A stretch of 48,535 bases of DNA, the filler included, from Jimgerdemannia flammicorona (Eukaryota): assembly GCA_003990765.1 (NCBI GenBank). It is 2 parts of 2 records of this genome, joined end to end, with 100 filler letters (N's around TTAATTAATTAA, not from the genome) between each part and the next. Parts side by side here need not be neighbours in the genome. Positions count along the whole stretch, not along the records: positions 1 to 24,221 come from RBNJ01001006.1; 1 more part is not named here. One strand, given 5' to 3'. A program made the position numbers and the translations under genes. Below, in pieces: positions 1-45,840 of the stretch (its first letter is position 1; every line of letters begins with the position of its first letter). The notes below the pieces were generated by a model that was not told where the DNA came from, did not search any database, and worked only from the letters and a program-made list of their open reading frames with translations.

Positions 1-331
1 GGCAGATTCGGGTATAGAATGAGTTGGGATCTTCACTAAGTCCCTGGCAGATAGTATTGAGTTGATCCTTGAGAGCTTGCTTGATCTCTTCGGTATAATA
101 TGTTGTTCTGAGGAAGGTCTTCATGTTAGCAAGTTTGGCTACACCAGCATTAGCAATGGTGGCTGCATTGAACTTGTCTCTAGCAGGTCCTCTGAGGCTG
201 ACTGGTAGAAGGGCCAATTGAGCATCCACACCAAGGGCTCGTACAGCGGCAAATTGTTCAAAGTCTTCGATGAAGGTCAGGATTGACTCTTCAGTAGTAT
301 ATCCATAGAATATGGGGGGACACATTTCCAT
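1..331 (-). CDS. gag: Gag (capsid) N-terminal part of Gypsy element 1, truncated by the window edge
   Basis: Manual translation MEMCPPIFYGYTTEESILTFIEDFEQFAAV...SLRGPARDKF...LNTICQGLSEDPNSFYTRIC has the retrotransposon-gag pattern (P.F.G, L.G.A, Q...E....FY.R) and lies just downstream of the PBS. Confidence 0.8.
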   Translation of the reverse strand, partial: MEMCPPIFYGYTTEESILTFIEDFEQFAAVRALGVDAQLALLPVSLRGPARDKFNAATIANAGVAKLANMKTFLRTTYYTEEIKQALKDQLNTICQGLSEDPNSFYTRIC

Positions 332-438
332 CTTGTCTTGAATTCTTGCAGGGGTGACTCTTGTAGTCAGGGTAGTTGTTGTGGGGATTGTTCGTTTTTC
401 AGCTTGAAAGTGAGGGATTCATCTTGAATCACCAGCCA

Positions 439-448
439 ATGGGCACCA
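439..448 (-). promoter_or_regulatory. Primer-binding site of Gypsy element 1 (TGGTGCCCAT)
   Basis: TGG start 3 nt (ACT) after the LTR-terminal CA, the same spacing as in element 2. The tRNA identity is uncertain (possibly CpG-decayed TGGCGCCC, Lys-like). Confidence 0.7.
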
Positions 449-773
449 AGTTGTCATGTAGTGGTCGCTGAGTCCTTCAAATATGCCAGATTCTCTTCAA
501 GGTATATCTCTTAGACTAACTTAAGTTTGTTATAAGCAAGTTCTTATTGGAGTGCCTTCCCAAGGTCTTATAGTCCTCAAACTTCTTATCTTTAACTGTC
601 TTGTTATCTCTTAGATTGCTTGCAAGGAAGTGTGTATAAGTGAACTTGACTCGAACTTGACTGACTTTATTTCAGAGGAAATAAGAGGGGTATTTATACA
701 AAATATAATTCAATGGTTGCTAAGATATAAAGCTAAATATAAATTCCAATAACTAAAACTACTAAGTTCCAAG

Positions 774-905
774 GCTGGTATTATTTAGTGTCACATCAAA
801 ATGCTGGTGCTGGAACAAATTTGCGTCACCTCAGAATACCAGTGCTGGCATTATCTGGTGTTACATGAGAATACTAGTGCTGGCATTATTCAGTGTAACA
901 AAGAA
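774..905. repeat. 35-bp tandem repeat x4 in the LTR (enhancer-like)
   Basis: Units start at 774, 809, 844 and 879; consensus ~GCTGGCATTATYYRGTGTHACATSAGAATRCTRGT. Confidence 0.85.
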
Positions 906-906
906 C

Positions 907-1752
907 TTAGAGCAGAAAGTTCAGGACTATGGGGGCTTCATCATCATCATCATCACTGAAGGAGATGAGATCCGCGAATTCGTCATGCAGGTCATGCATC
1001 TTGCGTACTTCGTCATGCGGTTCGCGTGCTTCGGGTATGTCGATGTCGCGCAGGATGACATCATCGCCGATGACGTCATCACGTTCAGTGGGGAAATCGG
1101 GGACAAGATCTGGAGCTCTCCAGTCTATGAGGTTCTCTTCCACAAAATAGGGGACAAATGTGGGGTCTTGGGGGGATCTAACCCAGATGCTTGGGCCTTG
1201 GAATACTGAGATCAATCCTTGCAGGAATTGGTCTGGGTTGTCCTGAAGGATGGGGTGCCAGAAGTCTTCTACTTCTTCACTGTTGAGGGTGATAGTGGAC
1301 TGGGCTTCTGTAGCCACCCTGGCTTCTAGTGCATTGATGCAGTGAGATGACAGGTCTCTGAAATCTGAGACTCTAACATACTCCAAGTTGGGAATTGACC
1401 ATGGTGCATGCCTGAAGATCTGATGGATCTTCTTAGCTGTCCTCGTTTCACATATATCCATGGGAGTGGCATCTTGTAGTTCTTGGGTGCTGGCCTGTGG
1501 GAGCTCCCAGCAGAGGAGGTTTCCTATTTTGTACTCCTGCCACATTTGGAGGCATTCAGTGGCAATGGTGATCCTTGTTTCCATTTCATGGCGGTAGAGG
1601 ATAAAGTGATAGGGGTCTGCAGTACCCAGGTAGACACTAGGAGTTCTTCTTGAGTGGGTCTCCATGGCTCTTCTGATGTCTTGGAACATCCTTTCTTCAA
1701 CCGAGGTGCCTTGGTGGTTCCTTGACCTTGAGGTTTGGTAGGCGGCAGGCAT
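907..1752 (-). CDS. ORF-X: intact 281-aa accessory protein of unknown function with acidic C-terminal tail
   Basis: ATG-to-TAA open frame in otherwise stop-riddled DNA; collinear homology with 36464-37294 (AKKIHQIFRHAPWSIPNLEY vs AKKVHQIMHHAPFAIPNLNY); TATAAAA at 1839-1833 upstream. Confidence 0.85.
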   Translation of the reverse strand: MPAAYQTSRSRNHQGTSVEERMFQDIRRAMETHSRRTPSVYLGTADPYHFILYRHEMETRITIATECLQMWQEYKIGNLLCWELPQASTQELQDATPMDICETRTAKKIHQIFRHAPWSIPNLEYVRVSDFRDLSSHCINALEARVATEAQSTITLNSEEVEDFWHPILQDNPDQFLQGLISVFQGPSIWVRSPQDPTFVPYFVEENLIDWRAPDLVPDFPTERDDVIGDDVILRDIDIPEAREPHDEVRKMHDLHDEFADLISFSDDDDDEAPIVLNFLL

Positions 1753-3324
1753 TTCATTTGTGGTAAGTCTTTGAGCTATTTTGGGATTGGTGGTTCTTGT
1801 TGGTTGCTGCTACTGCGGTTCCTTGATCCTTCTTTTATATTCTTCAGGATGCTTATGCTGTGGTCACAATGACTCACAGTTGGTCATCATTGCTCATCTC
1901 ATATGCTATATGATCTTCTTGTGCTTCGATCTGGTGGCTTGCAAGGAAAGGCTGTCTCTTGTGCTGATGTCATCATTCTGGGGTCATCATTACAATATAA
2001 ATACATATATATATGTAAAAACATATATACAAATATACAAATATATATGTCAATAGATCAGTCTTCAACAGTTCATAGAACTGATGATGCTTCAAGTTAA
2101 ATATCCTTAATAGTTTCATACTTTCCATATAATCCTCACTCTGAAATCTGGTAATATTATGCTAAGACCAAAGATGATGTTATTTGTAATTATTATAGAT
2201 AAAAAATTAAAAAAAAAAAAGATACATTTATGATACAACTGATGCTTTTTTGTTTAATACACACATGATATTGTTTCTACCAACCCCTATATACTATATG
2301 CCCTAAAGTTCAAAATACTTAGTGGGTCAACTTCAAACATATATCAATATATATATAAAAGACAAACACTCTGACAAAATCAAAATGAAATAAAATTGAT
2401 ATCCAAGCTATAGTGGGTATATTTATCTAATTACCTCACTAATTCTATATCAACAACTCTATTTAATCAAAAATATTTAGCCATATTCTTCAGCAGAATT
2501 TCGAAATCAACTTATTTGCTAGATTGTATCTACAGACCAACCATTTACAACCATCAAGAGCAACTAGTTATATAGTATCTTTGACTCTCAAGAATGATTT
2601 ATATCTACCAAATACTAATACTGCTGGTAAAGATATTCTGGAGGCCTATAGGAAGGAGTATGATAATCTTCACCAGATACTTCAGATAAAATAAATAAAT
2701 AAGGGTAATACCATAACTGTTGCAAGCATAATTATATATACATATATATAAAGAGCTCCCCAATTTAATCTCACATTCTATAAACAGAATTCAGCAGACA
2801 GAATGTCATTTATGATCAATACATAGATATCTCCCAATCAATTTCATTTCTGAATATTACTGATCATTGAATTGACCTTGATTGACAACTTAAATCTCTT
2901 ACCATTGACTTCATCAAACTTGCTGATTCTCATTCAGGAGAAAACACCACAGATACTTTTATTAGTTATATCTAGAAGCTTGGAATTACAACTAAGATAA
3001 AAAAGGGGGGGGCTTGCAATCTGGTCAGTATTTTAAGAGAAGACTTAAAACAAAATAGATTTTAATAGTTATTTATTTTGCATAAATTTGCCAACAGAAA
3101 ATTTCAAGTACAGATTTTTGCCATTATAATAGACAATTCTACAAATAACTCAATATTTTTCTAAAATTTAGTAACTAATCTTAAATAAAAAAATGTGGCC
3201 TTCAGTATAGAAAACTATTATATATATTATCAGGCCCACATACTGAACCTCACTGTTCAGGATTATTTTATGCATATAGACAAAACATCTAGAAGTGAGG
3301 TAATCCCAAGTATTATTTTCAAAC

Positions 3325-5203: not shown

Positions 5204-8200
5204 TTTTTTTTTATTTTTTTTATTTTTTTTATTTTTTATAGTCACTCAGACTTCCCTTTATTACCTCAATCTATAAATAATAATACAATTTCACCCCCAC
5301 CCCTCACCCAATACCCCTTGTATCCCCTTCTCTACTCTCTATGTATCTCTCCCCATTAGAGGACAACCTAGCCACCTGTCACCTGAACCCTCCCACCACT
5401 TTTCCAGCAAATACACTTCACTAAACTCTGTTGGTCCCCCCCACTGGGTCCCCATCCTCACCATCAGCTATTCAAAATGTCAAGTAATAACCATTCTCAT
5501 CATACTACCTTAGCCCCAATCTCAATCTGCTGGCTCTTCTTAAATACATGCAACCAATGCCTAGCCAACCCAATCCAAATTACTGGAACCCAGCCCAAGG
5601 TCAACCATTCATCCCTAACCCCACTCACTAGCCTTCAGTGGAGGTCCCCCCATCTCCCCCCTTCCCCCCCCACCAGTGCCTGTAGTCCTAACTGATTCAC
5701 AATATAGAGCCAAAACTCCCCCAGGACTTCACACTTACCAAGCCAATGTTCAAGCATTTGTACCACTCCCCCCTCCTGGCCAACATCTATATATTCCTCA
5801 CACTCAAATATGCCATCCACCACCAAGTGCCCAGACTGATAGTTCAGTATCACATTCTGCCTCAGAAACCTCCACCATACCACCCAGAACTTGGGGGAAA
5901 GCCACTGCATCACCTGCTTACTCCAAGACCAAAGACTATTCCAGTCCCACTCCTTGCCAATCCCCCCCTCTGCCATGCTAAGGGCCATAGGTCCCCCCCT
6001 AGGCCCTGCATACAATCCATTCCATCGCCAAGCTGGAAATCCTCCACCAATGTACCTCCCAGCAATAGCCTGTCTCATTTCCACATCTATGGACCCCAGT
6101 CCTCCTTCCCCTCATCACCCTGCCACTGAAGTTCAATTCTTCTTACATCATCTACCACTCTCTACCAAAAGCCTTTATACTGCATCCTCTTGCTCCCATC
6201 CAGGACCACCATTGCAAGCAGGTCACCAGTAACTCCATGAGGGGAATACCAAACTTCCCACACTCTCTGCATGAGTGGTACCCACTCCTGGCCCCTCAAC
6301 TCACTCACTCTCTTCAGCCACCATGCTCTCAGACAGTAAAGGTATTTGGTAAAGTCCACCAAGCCTAGTCTGCCTCTGTCAATAGGTAGAGTAAGAACCT
6401 CCCATCCAATCTGACTTCACTTCCCAGCCCAGATCCATGATCTTGCCATCTTCAGAAGTTATCTGACCACTCATGCTGGAAAGTCCAGATGATACCTTAC
6501 ATACTACAGCTTTGTCAGCCAGTATACATTCAGCACCATCACCCTTTCTGCCAAGGATATATGCTGACCACCCCACTTCAAGAGCACATTTCCCTATACT
6601 AGAAGCTGATGTTCCCACTATACATGAGGTAGGAGAGATCTATATACTGAAAAGTAGATTCCCAAATACTGAACTGGTTCTCCTACTGATACTACTGTCT
6701 CAATCACATTGTCTCCTACTATTCTGCTGCCTAGTATCAGAGTCTCACATTTGTGCCAGTTGAGTTTGGTACCTAAGCCCCTCTCATACTATTCTACAGA
6801 CCTCCTTAACTCCTCCACATCCTCAAATAAACCCAGTCCAACCACCATATCATCTACAAAAGCCTCCACTTTCCAGTTAATTTCCAAAATGTCCAAACCC
6901 CCAATCTGACACCTGATCCTATCCAATAGGGCTCTAAGGAAAGGGTATATAAGATAGGTGACAAAGGATCTCCTTGTGGCACCCCACAACTTAGAGGAAA
7001 AGTCACACCTCTGTACCCATTCATCATCAATGCTGCTTGACTGTCCTCCAATAGACTGATCAATGACCTCCTGATCCCCAGGGGAACTCCTACTTGTTTC
7101 AGTACCCCTTTCAGCCAGACCCTCCTCACCCTGTCATATGTCTTCTCCTGATCCAGAAATACTAACCAGCCATCAACCCCAGCTGCCTGAGCTCCTTCAA
7201 TCACCCCATAGACCCAGACAGTTTCATCCCAGATCAACTATCCACCAACAAATCCCCTCTGTTCCACTCCCAGTACCTGCTGAGCAATTCCCTACAGTCT
7301 AGCCACTAAGATCTTTGTCACCAGCTTGTAGTCTATGTCAAGGAGCATGATCAGTTGCCAGTTCTTCCAATCTTCTCTTTACCTCTTATTCTTATATAGC
7401 AAAGAGACCAGCCCTAGAAGCTGGCCCCCAATCCACAATCCAGATCAAAGGACCTCATCACTCATCACTATCATCTCCTCCAATATCACTTCTACCCTAG
7501 CCATCTTCTTCCAAAAATCTCAGAGAAGCCCATCCTCTCCTGGAGCAGTCGTTTTGCTCATCAAAGCCAAGATCTTGCATACTTCCTCCCCCATCACTGG
7601 ATCTCCCAGTGTCCCCAGGCCCAGAGCTGGGTCTGGATGCCAATCCTCCAACTGCTGTTCAATGTTCAGGGCATCCTCCCCCCCTTCCTCCTCACTCCAT
7701 AAATTTCCCCAGTAAGTTCTCAGCATTTCCAGAATCTTAGGAGTCTCAGCCACCATCACTCCATCCTCATCCAAAATCCCTTCCCACTACTGTCACATTC
7801 TCCAAGCCTAAAGCAACCATGAAAGGACTCTGGTGGGCCTCTCTCCCTCCTCCAACCCCTGCCACTGCAACCTTGCCACTATTCCCTTCAACTGAACCTC
7901 TTCCTCCATTCATAGCACTTTCTTTAACTTATCAACTTCCTTTCATATCTTCTGAATCCTCAAATCTGCTGCCCCCCAATTCTCCAGTAACCCTGCCTAT
8001 CTCCACAGAAGTACCACCAATCTCTGTGAAGCCCATTGCACTTACTGCTGCCTCTGAGCACTCCTTCCTTTCCCCGCCTCCCTCCAGTACCTCTGAGCAC
8101 TTGATATCAGCCTCCACCAGTGATTCCTAATCACTAATCCCTGCTCTTGCCATCTACTAATCTTCACAATAACTTCCACCTCCCAGTCTATCTATAAGGA

Positions 8201-10997
8201 ACCATCCTCCAGCAAAGAAGAATTCAGCTACCAATGTCCTGGCCTATCCCCACTTCTCCCAAATCTCTCACCCCCAATTAGACCCCAGTGATCTGACCAT
8301 GGACACCAAACCACCTCTAGCCCATCTCAGACATCTACTCCTCAGTACTCTGCCATCAACATCCAGTCAATCTTAGAGCCCAGCCCTGCCACCCAGTGGG
8401 TATAAATTCAGTGATCCACTCAGAACTGTCACTCTGAGTCTACCAATGAGCTCAACATCTCAATCTCTATTCAATCATCAAACCCACCACTTTTGCCTCA
8501 TATACCTCTCCCACTATCAGTTTTGTCTATCCCTTTATCTTATATCATGTTGAACCCCCCCCCAGGCAATCAATCCCAGCTTCACCCATGACACCAGCCT
8601 CCCTCAGGCCCCTGATCCAATCCACTCATTCCCCCCTCTCAGCTGGGCAATAACATGACCCAACAGTCAAAGGGTTCCATCCCAGTCTCCTCAATATACT
8701 CTACACCAACCTACTCCCCCAATGTCCAATGTCCCCAATGTCTCCCATCCTCTTTCAAACCAGAATACCCACCTGCCCAGTCCACACAGCTGCCCCACCC
8801 CATTCTCAAGTCCAGTCCAGTAAGTCCATGTCTACCTCATACTGTATATTCTGTAGTAAGAAGAGATCTACATCCAGTCCCCTCAGCTAGCTAAAGACAT
8901 TCCTTCATTATACTGCTCCCCTCAACCCATTCACGTTCAAAGAAAAGATTCTAGTTGTACTGTTTATATTGAAAAAATGTTTGATAATTGAGAGCTCTGT
9001 CTAGAATTCCATGCTAATTCCATCCCCAGCCAGATCCAAATACCACTCTGCCTCCAAATCAGCCTCTGCTACCACCTGAGCATCCAGTGCTTCCAAGAAT
9101 TCCTGACACTCCATCCCATCTACAGCCTCTATTTCTGCCTGATAATCTGTATACACCACTCTCCACTTCTCCAACCCCTTCCTTGAGCCCTACAAGTATG
9201 CTGCCTGGTCATTCACTATCTCTCGAAGGGTCTCCACTCTCTGATCATCAACTTGATATTCCTCTGACTCCAATAGTACTACCAGGATTTCATTTCTAAT
9301 TTTCCTTGACACTTCCTCTTCATGAAGAAATTCCTCCCAGTACTGATACTTAGCACTCAGAAGTCCTCTCCCCCAAGCTCCTCAGCTGCTACCCTCTAGA
9401 GTCTTCTACAGTCACTTCTCTTCATCTACTGCCTCAGCAACATCCTGGGCAACTCTCTCGACTCCCACCACAGGGTCCACTAGTGCACTCCTCCTTCCTG
9501 ACTCATCCCACTCCTCCTCCAGTATGTTCAGCAATTCCTCCTCCCCCTCTGCCCCACTCAGGACACTATGCTGAGATCGAGCCTCCTTCACCATTTCAGC
9601 ATTCTCCACTACACTGCCTAGACCCTCCTCATTCAATCCATCAGGGGCCACCACTGGAGCCACCCTGTGCTCCCCAGTCCAGGCACTCTCCCTCAGTCCA
9701 GTACCACCTTCCCCAGCCCTGCCATCTGCCACACTCTCTCCTATCTTTGTCAGTAACTCCTTCTGGATTTGCCTCCACTGCATCTTCTCCCAGGTCCCCT
9801 TGTCCATCCTGATTCTTTTCCATCAACAATCTCCACCACTTTTATGGCCTCATACTCCTTCCAAGCCAGTCTCCTCTTCTCAACTACTCCTGCCAGGTCC
9901 TCCAGAGCCTCCAGCAAGTCCTTCTCTTCCTCAAGTGTCCCTTTCACCCTCGAGACCTTACACTCCACTGGTCCCAACTTAAGGGTCACTGGCTAGTCCC
10001 TTGTCTTCTCCATGTTCTCCTTTCCAGCCAGCCTCACCTGGATGTCAATGTTACTAGTCCAGAGTGCAGTACTCTCCCAGACTCTGAACTCAATGTCCAT
10101 AATCTCCCCATACTCCTTGACTGCCTCTACAATCAACTTCCTGGCCCTCTCTCTTGACACCATCAGAAAATCCAATACTGTCAACTGTACCACTTAAGGG
10201 TACCAGTACATTCACCTGGCCATAGAAACCACTACTCTGCCCACCATCACCCCCTTCTCAATGGCCTCCAACAATGATGCCTCTTTCTTGAACCCAACCT
10301 TGACCCCTTCTTTCCCCTTCAAGAACTTTACCAAAGCCACCCCCTTCACCTCCTGCACCACCAGCCTCAAGATCATCCTAGTAGTTACTGTCAAACCCCA
10401 GAAACACAATGTGACAGTGAATTCCAATCTTGATTTCTTAAGTAACAGTGCTGACACCATGCCTGTCATACCATATGTCAGGTTCCTGGGCCTCATGCCC
10501 ACCCTCTGTCCTGAACTACCAACTATTGTCACATCTGGATTTTTCTCCAGATCTACAGTCATAGCTCCATCAGCAGTCACATCTCCAACCCCTACTCCCC
10601 CCCCTCCCCTACTGCCCAACCCTCCATGGGGGCCCCTCTCTATCCCACAACAGTAGCCATCAATACCTTCCCTAGGCCCAGCCAACTATCCAGACCAGAT
10701 GTCATTCTTCCCATCTTGACCTTGTCTGTAAAGGTCGTTCTCTCTCCACCATATTGCCTCAATCCACCTCTTCTACCCACAAGCACTATAGCCCACCATA
10801 GAAGGCCCTGGTATTCCCAAACCATCACTTCTCCTCCCCCTACATGCTGTCAGTTGAAGGCACTACTGCTCCCCTAGCTGACATGCTCATCAGTATGGTC
10901 ATTGTTGTCTATGTTGCTAGTTACCTTTCACAAAAAATGTTGTAGAAAGTGTTGTCTGAGTCTTGTGTCACTCAAATATTACTGGTGAAAAGTGATG
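5204..10997 (-). mobile_element. Full-length decayed L1/Tx1-like LINE (family A), ~5.8 kb
   Basis: Poly(T) from 5204; 16-bp TSD AACTCACCCTCTTCTC at 5188-5203 and 10998-11013; ORF1 ~10912-9001; ORF2 from ~8967 with APE (FSLNVNGL), RT (LDQEKTYDRV, GVPQGDPLSP, FVDD) and C-terminal C..C..EHWL..C. Confidence 0.92.
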
Positions 10998-20503: not shown

Positions 20504-23500
20504 ATGAACAGTACAACCAATATTTTTTCTTTGAACATGAATGGGTTATGGGGCACGACTCGATATAGGAACATTTTTACTTAGATGAAGGGATTGGAGG
20601 CCGATCTCTTCCTCTTGCAGGATGTCCAGTGTGAAGATGATTCTGATAGGATGGAATGGACAAAGGAATGGGGAGGTATGGTGATTTGGAAGGGCAAGGT
20701 TGGGATTTTGGTTCAGAAAGGCAGAGGGGAGATTCAGGAGGTGAGGAGCTGGAGGGAGAGGCTGGTCTGGAGTGAGTGGATTCAGGCAGGCTGGGAGCCA
20801 GTTACAGTTGGCTCCTGCTACTGCCCTGCAGTATGGGGTGAGAGAGTAGATTGGATGAAAGGCTTATGGGAGAGTGGGTTACTTGCAGAGGCTGGAGTGG
20901 ATATGCTTGGGGGTGATTTCAATATGGTTCGGGATATACTGTTGGATAGAACAGATGGAGGACGAGGTGCTGAGAGCAGGAGTGGAGGACTGGTGGCATG
21001 GGAGGAAGTAGAAAGGCTAAGTGTGCTAGTCGATGCTGGTAGGGAGTACTGGGGGAATAGGAGGGTTTATACACATTGGGCAGGAGGTCTGGGGACAAGA
21101 ATCAACTGGATTTTGATGGCCAGCTGCTGGGGCCTAGATGTTTGGAAATCACTGGAGGTAGAATGGTGTCCATGGTCGGACCACTGGGGGCTTTTGGGAG
21201 AAGGGTGCTTTGGGGGAAGTGGGGATGGGCCTGGAAATTGGCACCTCAATTCCTCTTTGTTAGATGACAAGACCCAGTGAGATGAGTGGGCTAAAGACAT
21301 TCAGCTGAGAGTGGAGAACTGGTGGCAGGAAGGGACCTCGGTTGGGACTCGGTGGATGCGGATGAAGGAGATGGCTAAGATTTACTGGAGTGAGGCTGGC
21401 AAGGAGGCAGGGAAGCAGCAAAGGCGTAAAGTGCAGTGTGCCTCTACTAGATTGACAAGGCTTCTGGAGGAGTGGGCAAGGCTGAAGATGGTAGAGGAAG
21501 AAGAAGATTGGAGGTCAACAAGAGTGAAAATGGAGGTTGGGGAACTACAACAGGTGCTGCGGGAAGAGGAAGAGGCGAGGGTACAGAGCTTGGTGGCACG
21601 GCTTTGCTGGCAGGATCTGGAGGAAGGAGAGAGGCCTTCCAAGTTTCTTACAAGAACCCTTAGGGTGAGGCAGGTACAGCAAAGGTGGGAAGGGGTGTTG
21701 GACTCAGAGGGTAGGCTGGTGCATGGTGTACAGGACATTCTTGGATTGCTGAAGGAGAGATGGAGTGGATTGTGGAGTGAGAAGGAGGGTGGGGCAGAAG
21801 CTGCTGCCATGGAACATACATTGGAGGATTGGCACCTACTACAAATTGAGGGGCTAGGTGACCTGGTGATGCCTGTACAGGAGGATGAGATCCACCAGGT
21901 TCTTGCCACGACAATGCCAGGTACAGCTCCAGAGGAGAATGGTCTGCCCTGGGACTTTTGGAAGCGAATGGTTGGCATCCCAGGGGTGATGGGAGAGATG
22001 ACAGAATTGTGCAACCTGATTCTACAGACAGGGAGGTGGGTGGGGAAGCAGGACCTTAGGCTGGTGATGCTGCTGTATAAAAACAAAGGAAGGCAGGAGG
22101 ATTGGAAGAACTGGCAGCTGATAATGTTGCTAGATATGGACAGAAAGTTGGTGACTAAGGTGGTGGTGGCGAGACTACAGAAGGTGGTCCAGCAAGTTGT
22201 GGGGATTGAGCAGAGGGGATTTGTGGGTGATTGGCTCATCAGGGATGGTACTGCCTGGGTACATGGAGTTATCGAAGGGGCAAGGGCCTGTGGACTGGAT
22301 GGGCATCTAGTCTTCTTGGACCAGGAGAAGGCATACGACTGGGTGTGAAGAGTCTGGCTGGTGAAAGTTTTGGATAGGATGGGGGTTCCATGCCGATTCT
22401 GGTCAGCAATGGTCAGCCTACTGGAAGGGAGTAGGGCTGCACTCACGTGTAATAGACATAGAGGGATAGCATTCCCCTTGGGTAGGGGGGTGCCCCAGGG
22501 GGACCCACTGTCCCCATTTTGTATGCTCTTTCCCTGGAACCCCTTATGGACAGAATTTGGAGGAGGATAGCCAGGCTCTCTGTCTTTGGCATAGGATGGA
22601 AAGTTGGGGCCTTTGCAGATGACATGGTGGTGGGTTTGGGATTGATTGCTGATGTTGAAGAGCTCAAGAAGACTGTGGAGTGGTATGAGGAGAACTCTGG
22701 AGCTAAGCTGAATTGGCATAAGTGTGAAACAATGGTACTGGGTAATGGTCTGGTGGGAGGGGAAGTTATAGGAACAATCATCCCCACCAGTGAAGCAGTG
22801 CAGTACTTGGGCATCTATTTGTCAGTCTATGGGTCAGTTCTGCCCAGGCTTTGTTGGGAGCAGAGGATTGGAATCTGGGAGGAGGCCCTGCAGAGTTGGG
22901 GGGAAAGAGGATTTTCTCTGGCAGGGCAGGTCTCGATTTTGAATGTCTACTGGCTGCCAAAGTTGTGGTACCTGGCATATCATCTGGACTTCCCAGCCTG
23001 GGTGGTGAAGAGATTGTTGAAGTCAGTGAAAAGATTGGGCTGGCAGGTGGAGTCAGATTGGTTGAGAGACCTTGTCCCTACCAGTGGCAAGAGGTGGTCT
23101 TGGGCTGGTTGACTTTCCTAAATGGTTACACTGCTTGAGAGCATGGTGGCTAAGGAGGGCAGTGGAATTGGGAGGAGGTGGTTGGGTTCCTCTGCTACAG
23201 AAGATCTGGGAGAGGTGGTCATCACAAAGGGGTTCAACCGGCGATCTCCTCTCATTGGTTGGACTTCAGAACACTGCACAATTGCAATATAGAGGATTTT
23301 GGTGGGGGATTGCAGAAGGGGTGCACCGCATTGGTATTTGTTGGCAGGAGAATGAAGGAGAGGAGGACTGGGACCCGGCTATATGGAGATGGGATCATAT
23401 ACTGCTGGGTGGCACTTCTTTAATTGAGTTCGACATTGGGGATGGAATGGAATGCCAGAGGAGACTGGGCCAGGATCTGTGGCCTAGCAGTTGGCAAGGA

Positions 23501-24154: not shown

Positions 24155-24221
24155 TGGGTGGTGATGATGTATACTTATTCATAGACTGGTAATAAATAGC
24201 GGAGTCCAAGTGACTATAAAA

Positions 24222-24321
24222 NNNNNNNNNNNNNNNNNNNNNNNNNNNNNNNNNNNNNNNNNNNNTTAATTAATTAANNNNNNNNNNNNNNNNNNNNNNN
24301 NNNNNNNNNNNNNNNNNNNNN
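24222..24321. other. Assembly gap with artificial six-frame-stop linker (N44-TTAATTAATTAA-N44)
   Basis: Exactly 100 bp with TTAATTAATTAA centred at 24266-24277. Contiguity across it is not guaranteed. Confidence 0.95.
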
Positions 24322-28506: not shown

Positions 28507-28954
28507 TGCACCACCAGCAGTTCTCTCCCCAGCCACCAGCCTAGCCACAGAAGAACCAATCTCTAGTGATATACCATCAGACCCCTGATTCCTGCCAGCC
28601 ACTGGCCCAGCCACAGAAGAACCAGTCTCTAGTGATATACCATCAGACCCCTGACCCCTGCTAGCTACCTGACCTGTCATCTGACCTATCACCTGACCTC
28701 TCCCCCTATCAATACTATGCCCCCCCTACCCCACCCCCAGGGGCCTAGCTGCAGCCCTCTTGCTTTCAACCACAGTATACCAGGTCTCAATTCCACCAGT
28801 CCTCCCCTGACCACTAGCCCCTCCTGCAGCCATACCAGCTCCTACAATAGCTGCAAAGCTCCTAGAAATACCCAGACCAGGTCTCCTCCTCTCCAGATAC
28901 TCAGAGCTAAAGAAACCTTGACTAGCCATATCACTAAAACTTGACAGATGTTGC

Positions 28955-29745
28955 TGTAATAGAATGAATGAACAAGTAAACAGATGGGATGTAATGAATG
29001 ATGAGCAATCATGTGACCCGGTGATGACGTCATCATATGATCGAGCATGGCATATGAATAACAAGTAATGAACAAACAAATGATGTGAAATGACACAGAA
29101 AACGATATCCAGCTTATCCCCAATAATTGGTGCCACAGCAACAGTTGCTACAGCTGCTGATCATTGCCTAGTAATTGAGGTCCTGATCACAAAGATATTC
29201 TTTACTAAAAACCACCTGACAAAGGTCATGATCACAAACCTCATTATAGTTACCAAATTAGTCACTCATACTTAGTCAGAAATCACAGACCAACTTGTAT
29301 AAATACCCCCCAGTTTCCATCCGAAATAAAGTAGTTTTAGTTCAGTCCTTAATACAAGAATCAAGTTCCCCCCACACACACACATTCCCCTGAGTCTTAG
29401 TAATGACATCTAAGTGACTCTAGTGTTTCTGACTAAACTCCAGAAGCCTAGCTAACTTCTGCCAGAACTGAGACTGATATATAAATCCCCAAAGACTTAA
29501 GTAAACCCATTGAACCTGAATTCCAAGGCGAATTCAGTCTGTGCATAGCAAAGAACAAGACCCTCGAAATAGGGCACAAGAGAAAGACCTTTGAAAGATA
29601 AGGCACTGCCGCTACAACTACTTAAAGTGAGCGCTTCCTCAACTGAAGGCTTCTTGGTACACATTGTGTACTAAGTCCCTAAGTAATAGTCTACTTCCCT
29701 AATTATCCAAAGAATAAGAGAGGGATAGAAGTGAGAGTTATTACA
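28955..29745 (+). repeat. 5' LTR (791 bp) of Gypsy element 2
   Basis: Direct repeat of 37306-38095; TATAAATA at 29298, AATAAA at 29325. Confidence 0.97.
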
Positions 29746-29748
29746 ACT

Positions 29749-29758
29749 TGGTAGCAGC
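29749..29758 (+). promoter_or_regulatory. Primer-binding site TGGTAGCAGC (initiator tRNA-Met-like)
   Basis: 3 nt after the LTR end; TGGTAGC is complementary to the GCUACCA 3' end typical of eukaryotic tRNA-iMet. Confidence 0.8.
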
Positions 29759-30636
29759 AGATTACCAGCCAAGAAGGCACCAAAGAACACACTCCTGAAA
29801 GTTGGAACAAGACCAATCTTGGACAGGAGTAACCCCCAGAACCAACTGTGGATCCTCAAACCAGAGCCAGAGAAGCCCTTGCCATTAGGACTAGGTGGTA
29901 CCAGGAAACCACAGACACAGAGACCCGCTAGCTTGTAATTGACCAGACTTACAGGGATCTATACCAGGCCTTTAGGACATACCACCCAGGACTTAGGAAT
30001 ATTGTTAGCTGCTATAGGTTCTACAAACTCCTCCGAGGACACATTGGAACCACTAGGACCCCAGAATCTACTGCTGCAGCCACCCAGGATTTTCTAGATT
30101 ATATTACACCCCCTGCTGCAAAAGAAGCAGCTGCTGAGTGGATTGCCTCTGACAGATATCATCATACCTCTACCAAGACCTTCCTCTACTACAGGCTAGT
30201 TGTATACTATGCCTCTGCCATAACTAGGTATGAGAACGAACAAGCAGGCCAACCATCCCCTACTGCTGAACAAGGAGCAGGCCCATCTACCCAGCCAGAA
30301 ACTGATATCCTCTTTGAAGGACCTAGTCAGTATGAGGATGCACTATCTCATCAGGGAAGGGAGTCAGACAAAGATTCTACAGATTACCAGTCTGATGATA
30401 GCCAACAAGGAACAGCAGGCCTAGGAATTTACCAAGGGACTACAGGTCAAGAAGACCAGACCCCAGAACCAACCCAGCCACCTATACAGAGGTTTGGTTT
30501 ACCCTCTCTCACAGGACTCTTTGACTTAATATCTGGGAACCAAGTAACTCCAAGTTATACAGCACCACAACCCCACCAAGCAGAACAATCTTCAGGAGAA
30601 TCTATCCCAACAGGCCCACCACTAATAGTCAACACA

Positions 30637-33600
30637 ATGGTAGATGCCAAAATTACAGCACTGACTACCCAGCTAGCAGCACTAGCAGGGATAGTAGGAC
30701 AGATTGCTGAACAGAACAAACCAATCAAGACCTTGCGAATCCCAATATTCAGTGGAAAAAACAGTGACATTGAAAACTTCATCAATGCAGTTGATACAGG
30801 CTACCGAGCAAACCAATGAAATGACAACTGAGTACCTACAGGAATGCTCACCAACAACCAGATCAATATCCTCCAACAACTATTTGCCACATCAGCAGCA
30901 CAAGTGGAAACAGTAGTCACATTCTTCACTGGAACAGTAGCTGAATTCTGGCGAACCTTGGAACAATACCCAGTAACCTGGGAAGCTCACCCCCAAGTCA
31001 TTAGACAAGTACCCACCAACAATAGACCAGGTTGGAATGACTACGAAGCAGGCCCAGAACTCAAGGCCTTGCTACTGACCAAATTCTGAAATGTGGCCTA
31101 CATACAAGAAACTTGGAACAAACTATCCCAGATGAAGTTCCACAAGAATGGCGAAGAAGATCTAGAGATCTTTGCCACCAGAATGGATGCCTATCTCAAA
31201 ACTGTTAAACTTACCTACCAGGAGAACAATTTGGCCATCAATGGTACCAGAGCCAACCATCTCTTTGCAGCCCTACCAGACTGGCTCACCCAGAAGATCA
31301 AGGAACAAGGTCTTCCCCAAGGATGTCCCCACTACTCATGGTATTTTGCCCAGGTACAAAGAAGAGTCCACGAAATCCTTGCTGCACAAGCTCCACGAAA
31401 TTAAGAACACAAGAAGGATAACCAAGATAGGAGAAATCCTACCAGGAGAAATGACCAAAGATATGATCAAAGATATGATCAAAGGAACCAACGAAATCCC
31501 AAAGGACCCAGACCTCCTACCAAGGATGAAAAGAGGCAGCTCCATGAAAAGAGATTGTGCTTTATCTGCAAAAAGGCAGGACACATCTCAGTCAAATGTC
31601 CCGAGAAGAGAAACAGATCAGGCGAATCCAGTAACCAGAACATTACTGTCATCGGAGAAGGTCCAGGAAAGAAGAACCTTGAGAATGTAATCAAAGTATA
31701 GAAGATATGGTACAAGGCTACCATCTCCACTAAGGTCCACCCAACTGATGCTGGATATAACCTCTACAGCAGCCAAGACCTCACCATCCCACCAAGCACC
31801 AATGCTACAGTGCAAACCGGAATTGCAATACAAGCTCCCAGAGATACATATATCCACCTTGCTGAGCGAAGTAGCCTAGCCAAAGAGTTCAACATTGGAC
31901 TAGGAGGAGGAGTAGTTGACCAAGGATTTACTGGTGAAATCCATGTCATCTTGCGAAATTTTGGAGACACATCATTTGAAGTCAAAGCAGGCCAAAGAAT
32001 TGCCCAAGCAATCATTGAAGAAATCCGTCAAGATCTCACCATTGAAGAAGTCCCCGAACTCTCCCAGACAGACTATGGCAAGAAAGGGTTTGGATCTACC
32101 AACAAACCTCTCAGTCAAAAGGTCACTACCATGAAGGAAGATGATGAAAGCTGGTACAAGAGAATTGCAGATGGTTATGTACCATATGGATGATGTCCTC
32201 ATTCTATTTGAATGTACTGTATGGAATATGTTGGTGAATGCCATGCATGCCTCTCCAAAGTTTTCAAAATTCAATCTGAGAAACACTAAGCCCCACAGAC
32301 TGAGGAACCCAAACAAGACAACCCTCCTTGTGAAGGATGGAGAGAAACTGACTTCAAGGAGACTGACAGCAATTGGGACAACAATGAGGATGAAGAACTC
32401 AATACCATCAAGAAGGAGGACAGTTGCATCAAGTTCACAGGCCAAGTCCACAGACAGAATGTCAATGTCTTGCTTGATAGTGGTGCTACTGGAAACTACA
32501 TCAGCACCAAGACCACCAAGAGGATTGGAGCCCGAAGCAGACCAACTACTGAGAAAAGAAGTGTTACCTTCGGTGATGGAAAGACTGCACCATTGACCAA
32601 GATCTGTGAAGATCTCTTGCTCAAAATTGGCAAATATCAAGAGAAATTGAACTTCAGCATTGTAGACCTCTCAGGACAAGATATTATCTTAGGAAAAACC
32701 TGGTTAACCCAGCATAACCCAGATATCAACTGGAGAACCAACGAGGTTAACCTGACCCATGAAGGCAGAAAGATCACCCTGACACCCCAAGAAGGTACCA
32801 ACTACTAAGAAATCGAAATCATCTCTGCCATTCAAATGAAGAGACTCTCTCAAAAAAAGGGAAACACCTACTTCATCTGTACAGTACAAGAAGTCACTGA
32901 AGCTACAAGCAGCCCAATTCCAACAGAAGCTTAAGAACTGTTTGAAGAATTCCAAGATATATTCCAAGATCCTCAAGGACTTCCACCCAAGCGCCAAATT
33001 CAACATGGAATTGATCTTATTCCAGGATCTGAATCCCCATACAAGAGTATCTACCAACTGGCCCAACCTGAGCTCAAGACTCTCAAGGATGAACTGACCA
33101 AACTACTGGCTCAAGGATACATTGAACCCAGCTGCTCCCCATTTGGAGCCTCCAATTTATTTGTCAAGAAGAAGGATGGCTCTCTGCGAATGTGTATTGA
33201 CTATAGAGCTCTCAACAAGATCACCATCAAGAACTGGTATGCCTTGCCCAGGATTGATAAGTTGCTATACCAAATATTCAAGGCCAAGACCTTCTCTCTA
33301 TTGGATTTGCAAAATAGTTACCACCAGATTCTCATTGATGAGAAGGACATTGAGAAGACAGCTTTCCAAACACGGTTTGGACACTACCAGTTCCGAGTCA
33401 TGCCTTTTGGATTGACCAATACACCAGCAACATTCCAGTATCTAATAAATGACATCTTTGGACCACTCCTCAACATCTGTGTCCTTGTATATATTGATGA
33501 TATACTAATCTACAGCGAGACAGTAGAGCTACATTACACTCACCTCAGACAAGTACTGACCCTCCTGCGAGAACACCAGCTCTATGCCAAGATGAGCAAA

Positions 33601-35811
33601 TGCAAGTTCTACCAAGACCAGATTGAATACCTGGGACACATCATCTCTGCTGAAGGTATCAACATGGACCCCCGAAAAGTATCAGCCCTCAAGGATATCC
33701 CTATCCCTACTACCCTCAAGCTACTCCAGCACTTTCTGGGTATTGCTGATTATTACTGAAGGTTTATCCAAGGATGCTCTGCTATTGCAGTCCCACTGAC
33801 CAGCCTGGCCCACAAAGGAGTGAACATCAAAGATGAATGGACCCCCGAATGCACCCTGGCCATGGACCATCTCAAGAGACTTCTTACCGAGGCCCTAGTG
33901 CTAATTGCACCTGACCCTACCAGGCCATTCACTCTGACCACAGATGCCTCTGACATTGCTATTGGAGCAGTGCTCAGTCAAGAAGACTGCCCAGTGGCCT
34001 ATCTTTCCCAGAAGCTCAAGCTAGCTGAGACCCAGTATACTACCCATGAGAAGGAACTCCTGGCTATTGTCACTGCACTCCAGGAATGGCGCCACTTCCT
34101 CCTAGGACAGCCATTTGTGGCCTACACTGACCACCATGCACTGTGGTATATTCACACACAGCCTATACTGACCCACAGACAAGCCCGCTGGATGGAAATC
34201 ATTGCCAACTTTGATATGGAAATCAAGTATATCCCAGGCAAAACCAACTGTGTGGCTGATGGTTTCTCTAGGTACATGGAAGATGAACTTGTCTTCATGG
34301 TCGAAGTAATTGGCGACCTCATCCAGATGATCAAGGATGGCTACCAGCAAGACAGCCCCCTGATGAATTTCCTTCAATTCTGCCAAGACCCAGAGGCCAA
34401 GGTTCCAGAATCCATGAGGCAAATGGCCAAGAGATTCACTTACCATGATAGACTTATCTACAGGGACCATGACAGAGTGGTTGTACCCAACAATGATACT
34501 CTGCGACTCAAGATCATGCAGGAACTCTATGATACCTCTGCAGCAGGACACTTTGGTTTTGAAAAGACCTACAACCTTCTCTCAAGAGAGTTCTATTGGC
34601 CAAAGATGACCAAGGATATCAAAGACTTCATGGCCTCATGCGAGATGTGTCAAAGGTTCAAAAGTGGTAACAAGCTACCAGCAGGACTCCTGCAACCCTT
34701 GCCTATCCTGAGTCACAACTGGGACCAGATTGCAATGGACTTCATTGTCCAACTCCCCAAGACTAAGGCAGAATGAGATGCCATAGTGGTATTTGTGGAC
34801 CGCCTAAGTAAACAAGCCCATTTTGCACCCACCAAGACCACTGCTACAGTACCAGAGATTGCTGAGATCTTTCTCAACCAAGTATTTAGGCTACACAGCA
34901 TATCTAGCACTATTGTATCTGACCGAGATGCCAAGTTCACAAGCAACTTCTGGAAGGCATTTTTCTCCCTCCATGGAACCAAGCTGAAGTTCTCTACTGC
35001 CTACCACCCTCAGACTGATGGTCAAACCAAGCAAACCAACAGGACTCTCAAACAGATGCTTAGCATCTTCTGCTGTTACAAACAAAATGATTGGAATAAG
35101 TACCTAGCCTATGCTGAGTTTGCCTACAATAACAGTCAGCAAACCTCCACAAAGAAGACTCCATTCTTCCTGAACCATGGTCAACACCCAAGGACCCCAA
35201 GTACTATTGCGAAATCAGCAGTCCCAGCAGCCCAAGATCTGGCCGAGACCATTTCTGACCTTACATGAATGACAAGAGATGCTCTTATAGAAGCACAAGA
35301 CTACCAGACCAAGTATGCAAACTTGAAGTGAAGAGAAACCTCCTACAATATTGGTGACATGGTTATGCTTAGAACAGACCACCTCCACCCTGACACCCTG
35401 GTACAACAACCGGCCAAGAAACTCTGTGCTAGAAGAATTGGACCATACAAGATCATGGAAAAAATCAGCGAAGTCAACTACAAGTTGCAACTTCCCCACA
35501 ATATCCGAGTACACCCAGTATTCCATATCAGCCAATTGGTGGACTACCATGAGAACCCATTCTCCAAGCATACAGTTCTAGCACCACCCCCAATTAGGAT
35601 CAATGATCATGAGGAATTTGAAATTGAGGAAGTACTTGACCACAAGGTCTGCAAATATCCCAAAACAGTCAAGCAGTTTTTCCTGATCAAGTGGAAGGGT
35701 TACCCCACCCATGATGCCACCTGGGAAAAAGAAGAAGCCCTGAAGCATGCACATGAAGCCCTCCAGGACTACATGGAAACACTCACTCCCCAGCAAAGGA
35801 AGAAACTATAG
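30637..35811 (+). pseudogene. gag-pol: Single-frame gag-dUTPase-protease-RT-RNaseH-integrase-chromodomain polyprotein with premature stops
   Basis: All pieces are in one frame: CFICKKAGHISVKC knuckle (31558), LLDSGA (~32470), CIDYRALN, MPFGLTN, YIDD (33490), TDAS, H..CEMC, IAMDF, IVSDRD, GPY, and chromodomain FEIEEVLDH..FLIKWKGY..DATWE (~35611-35770). Confidence 0.95.
31687..32103 (+). pseudogene. dut: Trimeric dUTPase domain between the Gag zinc knuckle and the protease
   Basis: All five motifs in order: DAGYNL, ERSSLA, GVVDQGFTGEI, GQRIAQ, TDYGKKGFGST. Confidence 0.95.
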
Positions 35812-36463
35812 CTCTAAGTATAGAAACATACAGCAAGCAAGAAGGATACTACATATTTTTATCTGGAAACATATAATACCAAACATTGTGAGAAAAAAGA
35901 ACACTATGGATAACCAACAAGAAGATACCCAAGCAAAAGAACAATCTAGTACAGTACAGCAAAATGCATTTGAACAACCCCTTTCACACCATCTGTATCA
36001 TCTCCGCTGGATGATGACAGACACTTCATGTGAAACTTAGGAAAGTCGACAATGTCGAAACCAGTCTAAGTCCATCCACGTGACAGATATTGTTACTAGG
36101 AATTGCCTCGGATTACAAGAAAAGTCTATTTCCGAGAGGTTCGAACCCCCAGCTATGACAATGGGAGCCCTTACCCTAGACAAAGATGTCCAGTCCTCGC
36201 AAATGCACCAACCAGATAAAAAAAAAAGTGGACCAAGACCTGTTAACTCTGTGTAACCACAACTGCGAGTGATGAGATCTTTGAAATCGGAATTTTCTCA
36301 TATGACTAGCACATACTCTGCTTACAGCACAGGTCATGTATTTTGCCAGAAAGCATGACCAAAGGAAGGTCACATCAGATGGGTGAATAAGTATAAATAC
36401 CCAAGACAAGAATACCCTACAACTCTCATCCCCCTTTCCTCACAAAGAAAAGACAAGACAAGA

Positions 36464-37294
36464 ATACCTGCCACCTGCCACCAAACTGCCCACCATAGCC
36501 AGCCCCTCTCAAGCCAGGTTGACCGCCTCTTTGGACACATCCAGGTCGCTATCCAAGGAAGGAACTGCCACTCAGAGGCCCTTAACCTCTCCAGCCCAGA
36601 CCTAGGACAGTATGTTCTTGACCGCCGTGAACTTATCGAAAGGGCCTACCTTGCTACCAGCTACCTAGAAATCTGGTATGAATATGAAATCAGTCACCAG
36701 CTTCTCCAATGGGCAAAGGACCTACCCATGGACCAAGTCTCTGATTGGACCCACCTAGACAGGCATGAGCAAAGACTTGCCAAGAAGGTCCATCAAATTA
36801 TGCACCATGCACCCTTTGCGATCCCCAACCTCAACTACATACAACTAAAGAACTTCCAGAACCTCTCTTTCCCTGAGGTCGATGCTCTTGAAGTCAAGGT
36901 CACCCAAGAAGCTAACTCCTGGATTACCCTCAAGTCTACTGACTGCAAACCCTACTGGAGCCCCCTCCTGAATGACAACCCTGACCAATAGCTCCAAGGC
37001 CTCTCTGACCTCTTTGAAGGACCACCTATCTGAATGGATATTCCCAGGCATGAAGATCAAGAGCCCTATTTAAATGGCCCCAACCACATCAGATGGAGAA
37101 CCCCTACACCAGCACCTATTCCAATGCAAGAACCATTTGCAGACCTCATTGACTTCTCCATCCTGGACAGTGAGCCATCAGCAACTACCACCCCCCCTGC
37201 CCCTGAAGAAGATGATAACAACTCTGAGGAAGATTCCCCACCTTTCTCTCCCCTGGTTCTCAATTTCTCAATCAACAAGGACATTGATTTCTAA
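36464..37294 (+). pseudogene. ORF-X homolog (~276 codons) between pol and the PPT; ATG decayed to ATA, two premature stops
   Basis: ORF-track pieces 36383 and 37034 share a frame; (M)PAT.. aligns with MPAA.. of 907-1752; the stops at 36989 and 37031 align with aromatic residues of the intact copy; GTATAAATACCC at 36391. Confidence 0.85.
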
Positions 37295-37305
37295 GGAGAG
37301 AAGGA
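37293..37305 (+). promoter_or_regulatory. Polypurine tract AAGGAGAGAAGGA
   Basis: Immediately precedes the TG of the 3' LTR and overlaps the ORF-X stop codon. Confidence 0.9.
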
Positions 37306-38095
37306 TGTAATAGAACGAATGAATGAGCGAACAGATGGGACATGACGAATGACGAGCAATCACGTGACCCGGTGATAATGTCATCATACGATCGAGCATG
37401 GCATATGAATAATAAGTAATGAATGAACGAACGATGTGAAACGACACGGAAAATGATATCCAGCTTATCTCCAATAATCAGTGCCACAGCAACAGTTGCC
37501 ACAGCTGCTGATTATTGCCTAGTAATTGAGGTCCTGATCACAAAGATATTCTTTACCAAAAACCACCTGACAAAGGTCGCAATCACAAACCTCATTATAG
37601 TTACCAAATTAGTCACTCATACTTAGTCAGAAATTGTTTACCAACTTGTATAAATATCCCCCAGTTTCCATCCAAAATAAAGCAGTTTTAGTTCAGTCCT
37701 TGATATAAAAATCAAGTCCCCCCCATATACACACATTCCCCTGAGTCTTAGTAATGACATCTAAGTGACTCTAGTGTTTCTGACTAAACTCCAGAAGCCT
37801 AGCTAACTTCTGCCAGAACTGAGACCGGTATATAAATCCCCAAAGACTTAAGTAAACCCATTGAACCTAAATTCCAAGGCAAATTCAGTCTGTGCACAGC
37901 AAAGAACAAGACCCTCGAAATAGGGCACAAGAGAAAGACCTTTGAAAGATAAGGCACTGCTGCTACAACTACTTAAAGTGAGCACTTCCTCAATGAAGGC
38001 TTCTTGGTACACATTGTATACTAAGTCCCTAAGTAATAGTCTACTTCCCTAATTATCCAAAGGATAAGAGAGGGATAGAAGTGAGAGTTATTACA
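37306..38095 (+). repeat. 3' LTR (790 bp) of Gypsy element 2
   Basis: Direct repeat of 28955-29745, with a 1-nt indel and mostly transition differences. Confidence 0.97.
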
Positions 38096-38222
38096 GTTGC
38101 TGATACTTATTGTGCCTTGTAGATAGACTCCTACTACACAATATACACTAGTATGCTTAAAATAAAAACTTGAAAATGTATTGTCTTTCACTGAAAGATG
38201 TTGGTGTGGCTTAGCTCACTCC

Positions 38223-40649: not shown

Positions 40650-41016
40650 TTAAAGATGGATCTGTGTCAGGTTAAATATGGGTCAGGGTCAGGTTATATA
40701 TATTTCTCGGGTCAGGTCACATATATTTCTCAGATCGGGTTATATATATTTCTCAGGTTGGGTTAAAGACAGGTTATGTATAATTCTGGGTCAGGTTAAA
40801 GATAGGTGACATATGTTTCTAGGTCAGATTAAAGATGGGTAACATATAATTCTGGGTCAGGTTAAAGATGGGTGACATATTATTCCAGGTTGGGTTAAAG
40901 ATGAGTGATATATTATTCCAGGTTAGGTTAAAGACAGGTGATGTATAATTCTGGATTGGGTTAAAGATAGATGACATATAATTCCAGGTCAGGTTAAATA
41001 TGGACATGGGTCAGCT
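40650..41016. repeat. 33-bp tandem array (~7 full copies, GGTTAAAGATGGGTGACATATAATTCTGGGTCA) plus shorter related units
   Basis: Directly visible; accounts for the 11-aa-periodic ORF 40819-41007. Confidence 0.9.
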
Positions 41017-41033
41017 TGAGTTGCAATACACTA

Positions 41034-45182: not shown

Positions 45183-45236
<54 letters not shown>

Positions 45237-45822: not shown

Positions 45823-45840
45823 AACTATCATCACTATGAG

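Follow-up and report, generated by a model that had tools for sequence, protein, structure and literature searches.

The stretch of DNA analysed here (the window, 48,535 nucleotides (nt) with filler) comes from Jimgerdemannia flammicorona, assembly GCA_003990765.1, and consists of two parts of two records joined end to end, positions 1 to 24,221 being from RBNJ01001006.1. Analysis of this window revealed two copies, A and B, of an open reading frame (ORF) named ORF-X, associated with two long terminal repeat (LTR) retrotransposons, carrier 1 and carrier 2, respectively. ORF-X is best explained as the third gene in a small clade of LTR retrotransposons of the chromodomain-bearing Ty3/Gypsy type, and the positions of its two copies are as follows.

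907-1752, minus strand: ORF-X copy A, an intact ORF of 281 amino acids (aa) from its ATG, with the stop at 907-909; family group A.
36464-37294, plus strand: ORF-X copy B, decayed, with ATA in place of ATG; family group B.

In a BLASTP comparison in which the stops of copy B were entered as X, the two copies were identical at 79 of 218 residues (36%) and positive at 124 of 218, without a single gap (145 bits, E 1e-46). The frame of copy B opens with IPAT instead of MPA, and contains in-frame stops at 36989-36991 and 37031-37033; its tail was recovered independently by the family profile (37034-37291, E 6e-6). A third copy was detected in the window neither by tblastn nor by a profile scan of 912 six-frame segments. 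The near-gapless alignment reported in the original prediction thus holds across the 218 residues, the pair of 20-residue segments quoted there is identical at 14 of 20 positions as claimed, and the tail motifs that it listed, FADLISFS/FADLIDFS and PIVLNF/PLVLNF, were found in copies A and B.

Regarding coding status, four loci (copy A, copy B and the metagenome contigs L001 and L002) were compared at the DNA level, giving six pairs. In all six, differences were most frequent at the third codon position, followed by the first and then the second (chi-square p 6e-6 to 0.003), for instance 90, 64 and 131 differences at positions 1, 2 and 3 between copy B and L002. The ratio of nonsynonymous to synonymous substitution rates (dN/dS; Nei-Gojobori method, NG86) was 0.26 for A-L001, 0.22 for B-L002 and 0.25 for A-B, with values of 0.18-0.31 for the core and higher ones, 0.39-0.61, for the tail; all of these figures are rough because every pair has a saturated dS (>1). 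Full-length intact relatives starting with MPA or MPP are present in each of three family groups. The CpG observed/expected ratio (o/e) was 0.40 in copy A, 0.15 in copy B and 0.10 in the window as a whole, an extreme depletion, and copy A looks young by this measure.

As judged from these substitution patterns, ORF-X is a protein-coding gene under purifying selection, in agreement with the earlier suggestion of such selection, the dN/dS values being about 0.2-0.3 and not near 1. The linkage to LTR elements assumed there is likewise seen at all four loci with DNA, each of which is flanked by LTR features. It could be argued that ORF-X is a captured host gene or a chance ORF without a role in the element, as the family is tiny and has no function assigned; this is highly improbable, given the LTR features around all four loci and the absence of any cellular relative among the 1.84 billion representatives searched, and the codon-position pattern together with the ungapped 36% identity excludes a chance ORF. 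ORF-X is very probably an element-borne gene maintained by selection.

The family is small. A word-indexed search of 5.8 billion proteins yielded six matches among 391 candidates, and a profile search across all 1.84 billion representatives yielded five clusters, of which the 16 members listed all lie on metagenome contigs, no longer than 4.8 kb, deposited in JGI/IMG or ENA, and none is from NCBI or UniRef. In the tree, group A comprises copy A of the window, P0002/13 and P0003-5, group B comprises copy B of the window, L002/P0009 and P0011 (support 97/91), group C comprises P0015/17/18/21 (= L001), and P0012 is an outlier on a long branch. The ORF-X family is an orphan family with three well-separated groups.

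No relative outside the family was obtained from the Pfam, PDB, BFVD and Atlas searches. No Pfam family matched copy A at E <= 1, the best E value of a profile search of PDB sequences was 0.24, Foldseek gave no match at E <= 0.001 against PDB and BFVD (with a query model of mean pLDDT 57, pLDDT being the predicted local distance difference test), and the best Z score of VIA-align over 48,161 chains was 4.9, far under the chance level for helical models; both Atlas look-ups gave scores below 0.9. The original prediction had treated the protein as novel, and in Pfam, the PDB profile search, Foldseek and VIA-align it indeed remains without a described relative; the fold is not called new because the AlphaFold2 model is weak. 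A scan of viral contigs revealed no relative, and no longer or fused forms were found, which is weak evidence. Beyond L001 and L002, the scans of metagenome and genome contigs each gave one bacterial match of 19 residues, L003 and L004 respectively denoting one and the same contig position. This match, the exact peptide KIHQIFRHAPWS at 10001-10057 in one frame of a contig from a bacterial metagenome-assembled genome, was judged a by-product of the pattern scan and not a relative because it lies outside any long ORF and the similarity does not extend. Twenty sequencing runs share content with positions 1-2300 of the window; these are mostly soil metagenomes, none of those listed is RNA, and the best share of words is 0.41. 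Full-text word searching of the literature, which can be searched by words and not by sequence, returned no description of the ORF-X protein.

Copy B lies in carrier 2, a complete insertion with the following features.

28955-38095, plus strand: carrier 2, whole insertion, complete and old.
28950-28954 and 38096-38100: target-site duplication GTTGC, 5 bp.
28955-29745, plus strand: 5' LTR, with ends TGTAAT...ATTACA.
29932-35811, plus strand: decayed gag-pol, with gag, dUTPase, aspartic protease, reverse transcriptase, RNase H, integrase, SH3 and chromodomain.
31810-32190, plus strand: dUTPase domain, located between gag and protease (Pfam E 3e-20).
35359-35808, plus strand: chromodomain region with SH3 (Pfam).
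37293-37305, plus strand: polypurine tract AAGGAGAGAAGGA, overlapping the stop of copy B and abutting the 3' LTR.
37306-38095, plus strand: 3' LTR, 93.0% identical to the 5' LTR over 791 nt.

The primer-binding site (PBS) of carrier 2, TTGGTAGCAGCAG, is located 2 nt past the 5' LTR. Pfam domains occur in the order RVP_2, RVT_1 (E 2e-34), RT_RNaseH, Integrase_H2C2, rve (E 1e-4, under the gathering score), SH3_Tf2-1 and Chromo (E 2e-13), and this order, including the integrase zinc finger and core followed by SH3 and chromodomain, identifies carrier 2 as a chromovirus. Its two LTRs differ by 54 substitutions, of which 52 are transitions and 19 are in CpG context. Copy B is positioned after pol and before the polypurine tract, and L002, whose ORF-X is 57% identical to copy B, has the same order of ORF-X, stop, polypurine tract AAGGAGGGAGGA and an LTR starting with TGTAAT.

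The dUTPase constitutes a second non-standard coding gain within carrier 2. In addition, an open stretch of 295 codons (29932-30816, plus strand) lies between the PBS and the gag core of this element, with no Pfam match and no early ATG, and carrier 1 has no comparable extension. The stretch contains LFEGPS, LFDLISG and PPLIVNT, ordered like FEGPP, FADLI.F and P.VLNF of ORF-X; a kinship with the ORF-X tail was rejected, as tblastn gave E 0.22 and the family profile misses the stretch.

Of carrier 1, the window holds the LTR region, the PBS and the first 110 aa of the ORF in gag position, with pol and the 3' LTR outside the window. Listed from its upstream border, its features are as follows.

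1995-2048, no strand: (AT)n microsatellite in flanking DNA, abutting the putative end of the element.
1753-1994, minus strand: putative 5' end of the LTR, with TGTAAT at 1994-1989 and the TATAAAA box some 150 nt further on, running to the ATG of ORF-X.
452-906, minus strand: LTR core, with two copies of ATAATGCCAGCAC..GTATTCT and the end ...ACA at 454-452.
700-687, minus strand: TGTATAAATACCCC promoter stretch of the LTR.
698-691, minus strand: TATAAATA box of the LTR core.
671-666, minus strand: AATAAA of the LTR.
432-449, minus strand: PBS TTGGTGCCCATTGGCTGG, 2 nt past the LTR end.
2-331, minus strand: presumed start of gag, 110 aa, with its ATG at 331, running off the window; identified by position only.

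Copy A does not lie 3' of a pol gene; it is located upstream of the LTR core, the PBS and gag, and no pol was found upstream of it within the window. We infer that carrier 1 is a Gypsy element, an assignment made indirectly because its pol lies off the window and its gag has neither a Pfam match nor relatives.

Regarding the kinship of the two carriers, the 54-nt core with TATA and poly(A) signals at 701-648 in carrier 1 is homologous to 29295-29347 in carrier 2 (76%, E 2e-5). Both LTRs start with TGTAAT, that of carrier 1 putatively so, and both elements have the junction ACA|AC|TTGGT, which in carrier 1 reads ...ACA, AC and then TTGGTGCCCATTGG; the primer-binding sites diverge after the common TTGGT. 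A tblastn comparison of residues 1-110 of the carrier 1 Gag with carrier 2 gave nothing better than E 1.0. The earlier description of the carriers as dissimilar therefore stands for their Gag N-termini and primer-binding sites, but the two elements are not unrelated. Their common LTR termini and promoter core, together with the PBS junction found in both, argue for a single clade, in which vertical descent from an ancestor bearing ORF-X is sufficient to explain its presence in both. Of the two earlier proposals, that ORF-X was kept by selection or exchanged between lineages, the former is supported by the dN/dS values and the latter is not needed to explain the sharing.

Two layouts of ORF-X, a difference not noted in the original prediction, were observed, the gene being located between pol and the polypurine tract in group B (copy B and L002) and having no polypurine tract after it in groups A and C (copy A and L001). 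In both copy A and L001, which are 54% identical in protein, the polypurine tract is absent after the stop, and an LTR-type TGTATAAATACCCC promoter plus AATAAA follows at about 180-210 nt, the promoter of L001 being 177 nt past its stop. Upstream of copy A, TGTAAT, with which both B-type LTRs start, falls exactly at the border of the (AT)n microsatellite, and positions 1932-1822 can be aligned with nt 6-121 of the 5' LTR of carrier 2 (z 4.1; 0/300 dinucleotide shuffles) and also to the 3' LTR (z 3.0; 1/300 shuffles). These features suggest that copy A quite probably lies inside the U3 region of an LTR of about 1.54 kb (1994-452, 1543 bp), and the same location within U3 of a long LTR is equally probable for groups A and C in general. 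Such an LTR-embedded layout would give two copies of ORF-X per full element, and a solo LTR would be a complete gene.

Alternatively, copy A may be the truncated 3' end of an upstream element arranged in tandem and sharing a 448-bp LTR (899-452). Tandem arrays of LTR elements exist, the segment 899-452 starts with TG and holds all core LTR signals, and the alignment supporting the longer U3 is of moderate strength and was not reproduced with L002. However, no polypurine tract precedes position 899, as is also the case in L001 despite an identity of only 54% in protein, no remnant of pol is present upstream, and the upstream break falls exactly at the TGTAAT terminus beside the microsatellite. 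The tandem arrangement is possible and is considered the less probable of the two; the location of copy A within U3 is preferred.

With respect to expression, each of the four loci has a TATA box at a distance of 62-87 nt before the first codon, with 65 nt in L001 and 81 nt in L002. In the window, these boxes are the following.

1833-1839, minus strand: TATAAAA box of copy A, 87 nt before the ATG and followed by the conserved leader AAAGACTTACCACAAA.
36392-36399, plus strand: TATAAATA box of copy B, at 72 nt from start to start and at 62 nt in the alignment tally.

The leader AAAGACT(T/C)AC(C/T)ACAAA is present just before the ATG in three of the four loci. On the basis of these signals ORF-X probably has its own promoter, and transcription from this TATA promoter, ending at the poly(A) signal (AATAAA) of the downstream LTR, would yield an mRNA of subgenomic size, about 1.2 kb. 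A promoter of ORF-X derived as a copy of the LTR promoter was considered and rejected, since the similarity obtained for L002 (z 3.7; 0/200 shuffles) did not recur in carrier 1 (z 1.0) or in carrier 2 (z 0.5). The motif AGGTCA was also discarded as a shared cis-motif, its 44 occurrences against 41 expected showing no enrichment. In L002, an element of about 35 nt, GTCAGGCGGAAC...TCAGAACA.AAG, occurs twice (172-205 and 1478-1512), one copy lying about 120 nt upstream of the TATA box of ORF-X and the other about 215 nt inside the LTR; it may be an upstream element common to both promoters, and the carriers in the window are without it.

The product of ORF-X is predicted to be a soluble, very acidic protein whose core is helical and whose acidic tail is disordered. 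The highest mean hydropathy (Kyte-Doolittle) over 19 residues was 0.58-0.97 in the five proteins scanned, none of which therefore has a transmembrane segment, in line with the earlier conclusion, based on signal peptides and transmembrane segments, that the protein is not env-like. The whole protein has a net charge of -18 to -36, with a basic stretch of about 35 residues at the N-terminus and a tail of 59-126 residues with a net charge of -13 to -27. Invariant or near-invariant residues are concentrated in HQ(I/V)FRHAPW..IPNL.Y and W.P(I/L)L.DNPDQ..(Q/R)GL...F(Q/E)GP, and two hydrophobic motifs, F.(D/N)LI.F and P.(V/T)LNF, are conserved in the tail, the latter at the C-terminus itself or close to it in 9 of 11 scanned members of the family. 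In nine of these 11 proteins the best tile of 39 residues has a net charge of -9 to -12 with 7-10 W/F/Y/L, which is the composition of acidic activation domains; the two that differ are copy B, whose best tile falls within the core (net -6, 13 W/F/Y/L), and P0012 (net -16, 2 W/F/Y/L). The AlphaFold2 model from 12 sequences has a mean pLDDT of 57 and a predicted template modelling score (pTM) of 0.52, with a helical core at about residues 55-160 (pLDDT 70-90), while residues 200-212 form a small hairpin and the tail is disordered; a rerun on residues 1-215 with 17 sequences brought no improvement (pLDDT 58.6).

The conserved tail motifs had been compared, speculatively, with an Atg8-interacting motif (F-x-x-L preceded by acidic residues) and with a clathrin box; on such a reading the protein would be an adaptor in trafficking or autophagy. 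At the level of regular expressions, a pattern of the type F..LI.F is present in 8 of 11 scanned proteins, preceded by acidic residues where present, and LISFE or LIIFE in some relatives fits L-phi-x-phi-[DE]. However, neither copy in the window has the strict clathrin-box pattern (they read LISFS and LIDFS), and only 2 of the 11 proteins were flagged for it. Patterns this short turn up often in tails that are acidic and disordered, and the protein has no membrane anchor. A role as adaptor is accordingly regarded as quite unlikely.

Regarding function, we tentatively propose as a possibility that ORF-X is a trans-acting regulator, the likeliest form of which would be an activator of the element's own promoters in the manner of Tas of the foamy viruses. 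In such a mechanism the folded core would bring the protein to the promoters of the element or to a host factor, and recruitment of the transcription machinery would fall to the acidic-hydrophobic tail. The foamy-virus gene tas/bel1 encodes about 300 aa with an acidic activating C-terminus, has an internal promoter and lies 3' of the structural genes, beside or overlapping the 3' LTR. ORF-X is comparable in size, in its 3' position (copy B and L002), in having a TATA box upstream and in its acidic tail, but a similarity to tas in sequence or fold could not be shown, and its carrier is a Metaviridae-type element without env in a non-vertebrate host; the likeness is one of possible working mode and not of membership.

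The acidity of the protein would also suit a cofactor of assembly or targeting, that is, a chaperone or a helper that targets the chromodomain integrase to chromatin, not a transcription factor, acting on the basic nucleocapsid, integrase or histones. The net charge of -18 to -36 with long acidic tails, the chromodomain integrase encoded by carrier 2 and the lack of resemblance to a DNA-binding fold are consistent with this role, but a protein made in fixed ratio to Gag-Pol has no obvious need for its own promoter, and we consider such a cofactor rather unlikely. A separately transcribed trans-acting product would also fit a counter-silencing factor directed against host RNA interference or DNA methylation of repeats. 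The CpG o/e of 0.10 and the excess of transitions in the LTR pair of carrier 2 point to a host in which repeats decay heavily through methylation, which would provide a setting for such a factor; on the other hand, the Pfam, PDB, BFVD and VIA-align searches showed no similarity to known suppressors, and carrier 2 decayed despite having ORF-X. This role is considered unlikely.

Taken as a whole, the explanation that we favour, with only a little more confidence than doubt, is that ORF-X is the third gene of the clade, with its own promoter, two layouts and a function as trans-acting regulator. Several observations speak against it. The DNA-level comparison covers only four loci with saturated dS, and the TATA boxes are sequence matches only. 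For the layout, the alignment of the upstream part of carrier 1 with the LTR of L002 gave z 0.5 and that of its downstream part with U3 of carrier 2 gave z -1.3, the 3' LTR of carrier 1 lies outside the window, so that ORF-X in both LTRs is an inferred arrangement, and the ORF in gag position has no Pfam match, and no relatives of it, longer ones included, were found. Regarding the regulatory role, the acidity of the whole protein is a poor fit to direct DNA binding, no link in fold or sequence to any transcription factor was found in the PDB profile search, Foldseek, VIA-align or BFVD, and residues 163-189, the most conserved part, are modelled at low confidence.

The window appears to consist almost entirely of repeats, and the host appears rich in transposable elements. 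Scans of the window for tRNA and Rfam families gave no match. The other features observed are as follows.

20585-23109 (plus strand), 6857-7237 (minus strand) and about 7100-8400: decayed non-LTR elements, LINE-like, with pieces of endonuclease and reverse transcriptase and with related copies elsewhere in the window.
24221-24265 and 24277-24321: runs of N (88 bases in total) within a repeat region.
39238-39405 and 40721-41036: arrays of tandem repeats that closely follow carrier 2, with periods of 24 nt and 33 nt, whose translations are proline/leucine-rich or glutamate-rich repeats in several frames.
44239-47343: large inverted repeat, 44239-45177 against 47343-46405 at 84%, with 45251-46410 self-complementary at 81%.

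Non-retroviral LTR retrotransposons are usually regarded as gag-pol machines, with few extra ORFs that are mostly env-like or unexplained. Among retroviruses, sag of mouse mammary tumour virus (MMTV) and nef of the human and simian immunodeficiency viruses (HIV/SIV) are ORFs inside or overlapping U3, Sag being a type II membrane glycoprotein and Nef being myristoylated. If the layout proposed for copy A is right, a location in U3 that is duplicated in both LTRs would be common to these genes and ORF-X; the ORF-X protein, however, has neither a hydrophobic segment nor an N-terminal glycine, and there is no homology.

Extra ORFs in Gypsy elements have precedent, and the ORF-X protein itself is an orphan. 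For fungal chromoviruses, the legend of Figure 3 in Novikova et al. 2010 (PMC2864245) includes an 'add. ORF' of unknown function, and the same source reports Gypsy elements bearing dUTPase in the basidiomycetes Postia and Phanerochaete and in Tuber. The resemblance is that of an extra ORF in a chromodomain Gypsy element, carrier 2 likewise having a dUTPase; the available text of that paper gives no sequence, position or family for the 'add. ORF', which may or may not be the same protein, and mentions neither an own promoter nor an LTR-embedded layout. Env-like third ORFs of Ty3/Gypsy elements are known from errantiviruses and Athila (PMC13524379; PMC2864245) and, like ORF-X in copy B and L002, lie after pol and before the 3' LTR, but ORF-X has no signal peptide, transmembrane segment or fusion-protein features and is acidic and partly disordered. 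Rare gains of domains in plant Ty3/Gypsy elements are described, for example an N6-methyladenosine (m6A) demethylase domain in orchids (PMC9289625); both cases represent lineage-restricted extra coding capacity in a Gypsy clade, but the orchid domain is a recognisable cellular one, whereas ORF-X is without a detectable cellular ancestor.

ORF-X is recognisable, at 36% identity and without gaps, across lineages that have lost any match between their Gag N-termini, and with a promoter signal of its own and two positions relative to the LTR boundary it offers a compact test case. It is rather doubtful, though conceivable, that ORF-X is an analogue of Tas outside the retroviruses that moved into the LTR in one lineage, with solo LTRs acting as self-contained genes that feed the activator; if so, each LTR, including a solo LTR, would consist of promoter, ORF and poly(A) signal and could supply the activator to related copies. 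Should both the LTR layout and the regulatory role prove true, Metaviridae-type elements would have evolved, independently of retroviruses, an accessory-gene logic of the retroviral kind, with an internal promoter and a gene borne in U3. In that case solo LTRs could also be genes that encode a protein, and ORF-X would provide a handle on the persistence of elements in hosts that heavily methylate their repeats.

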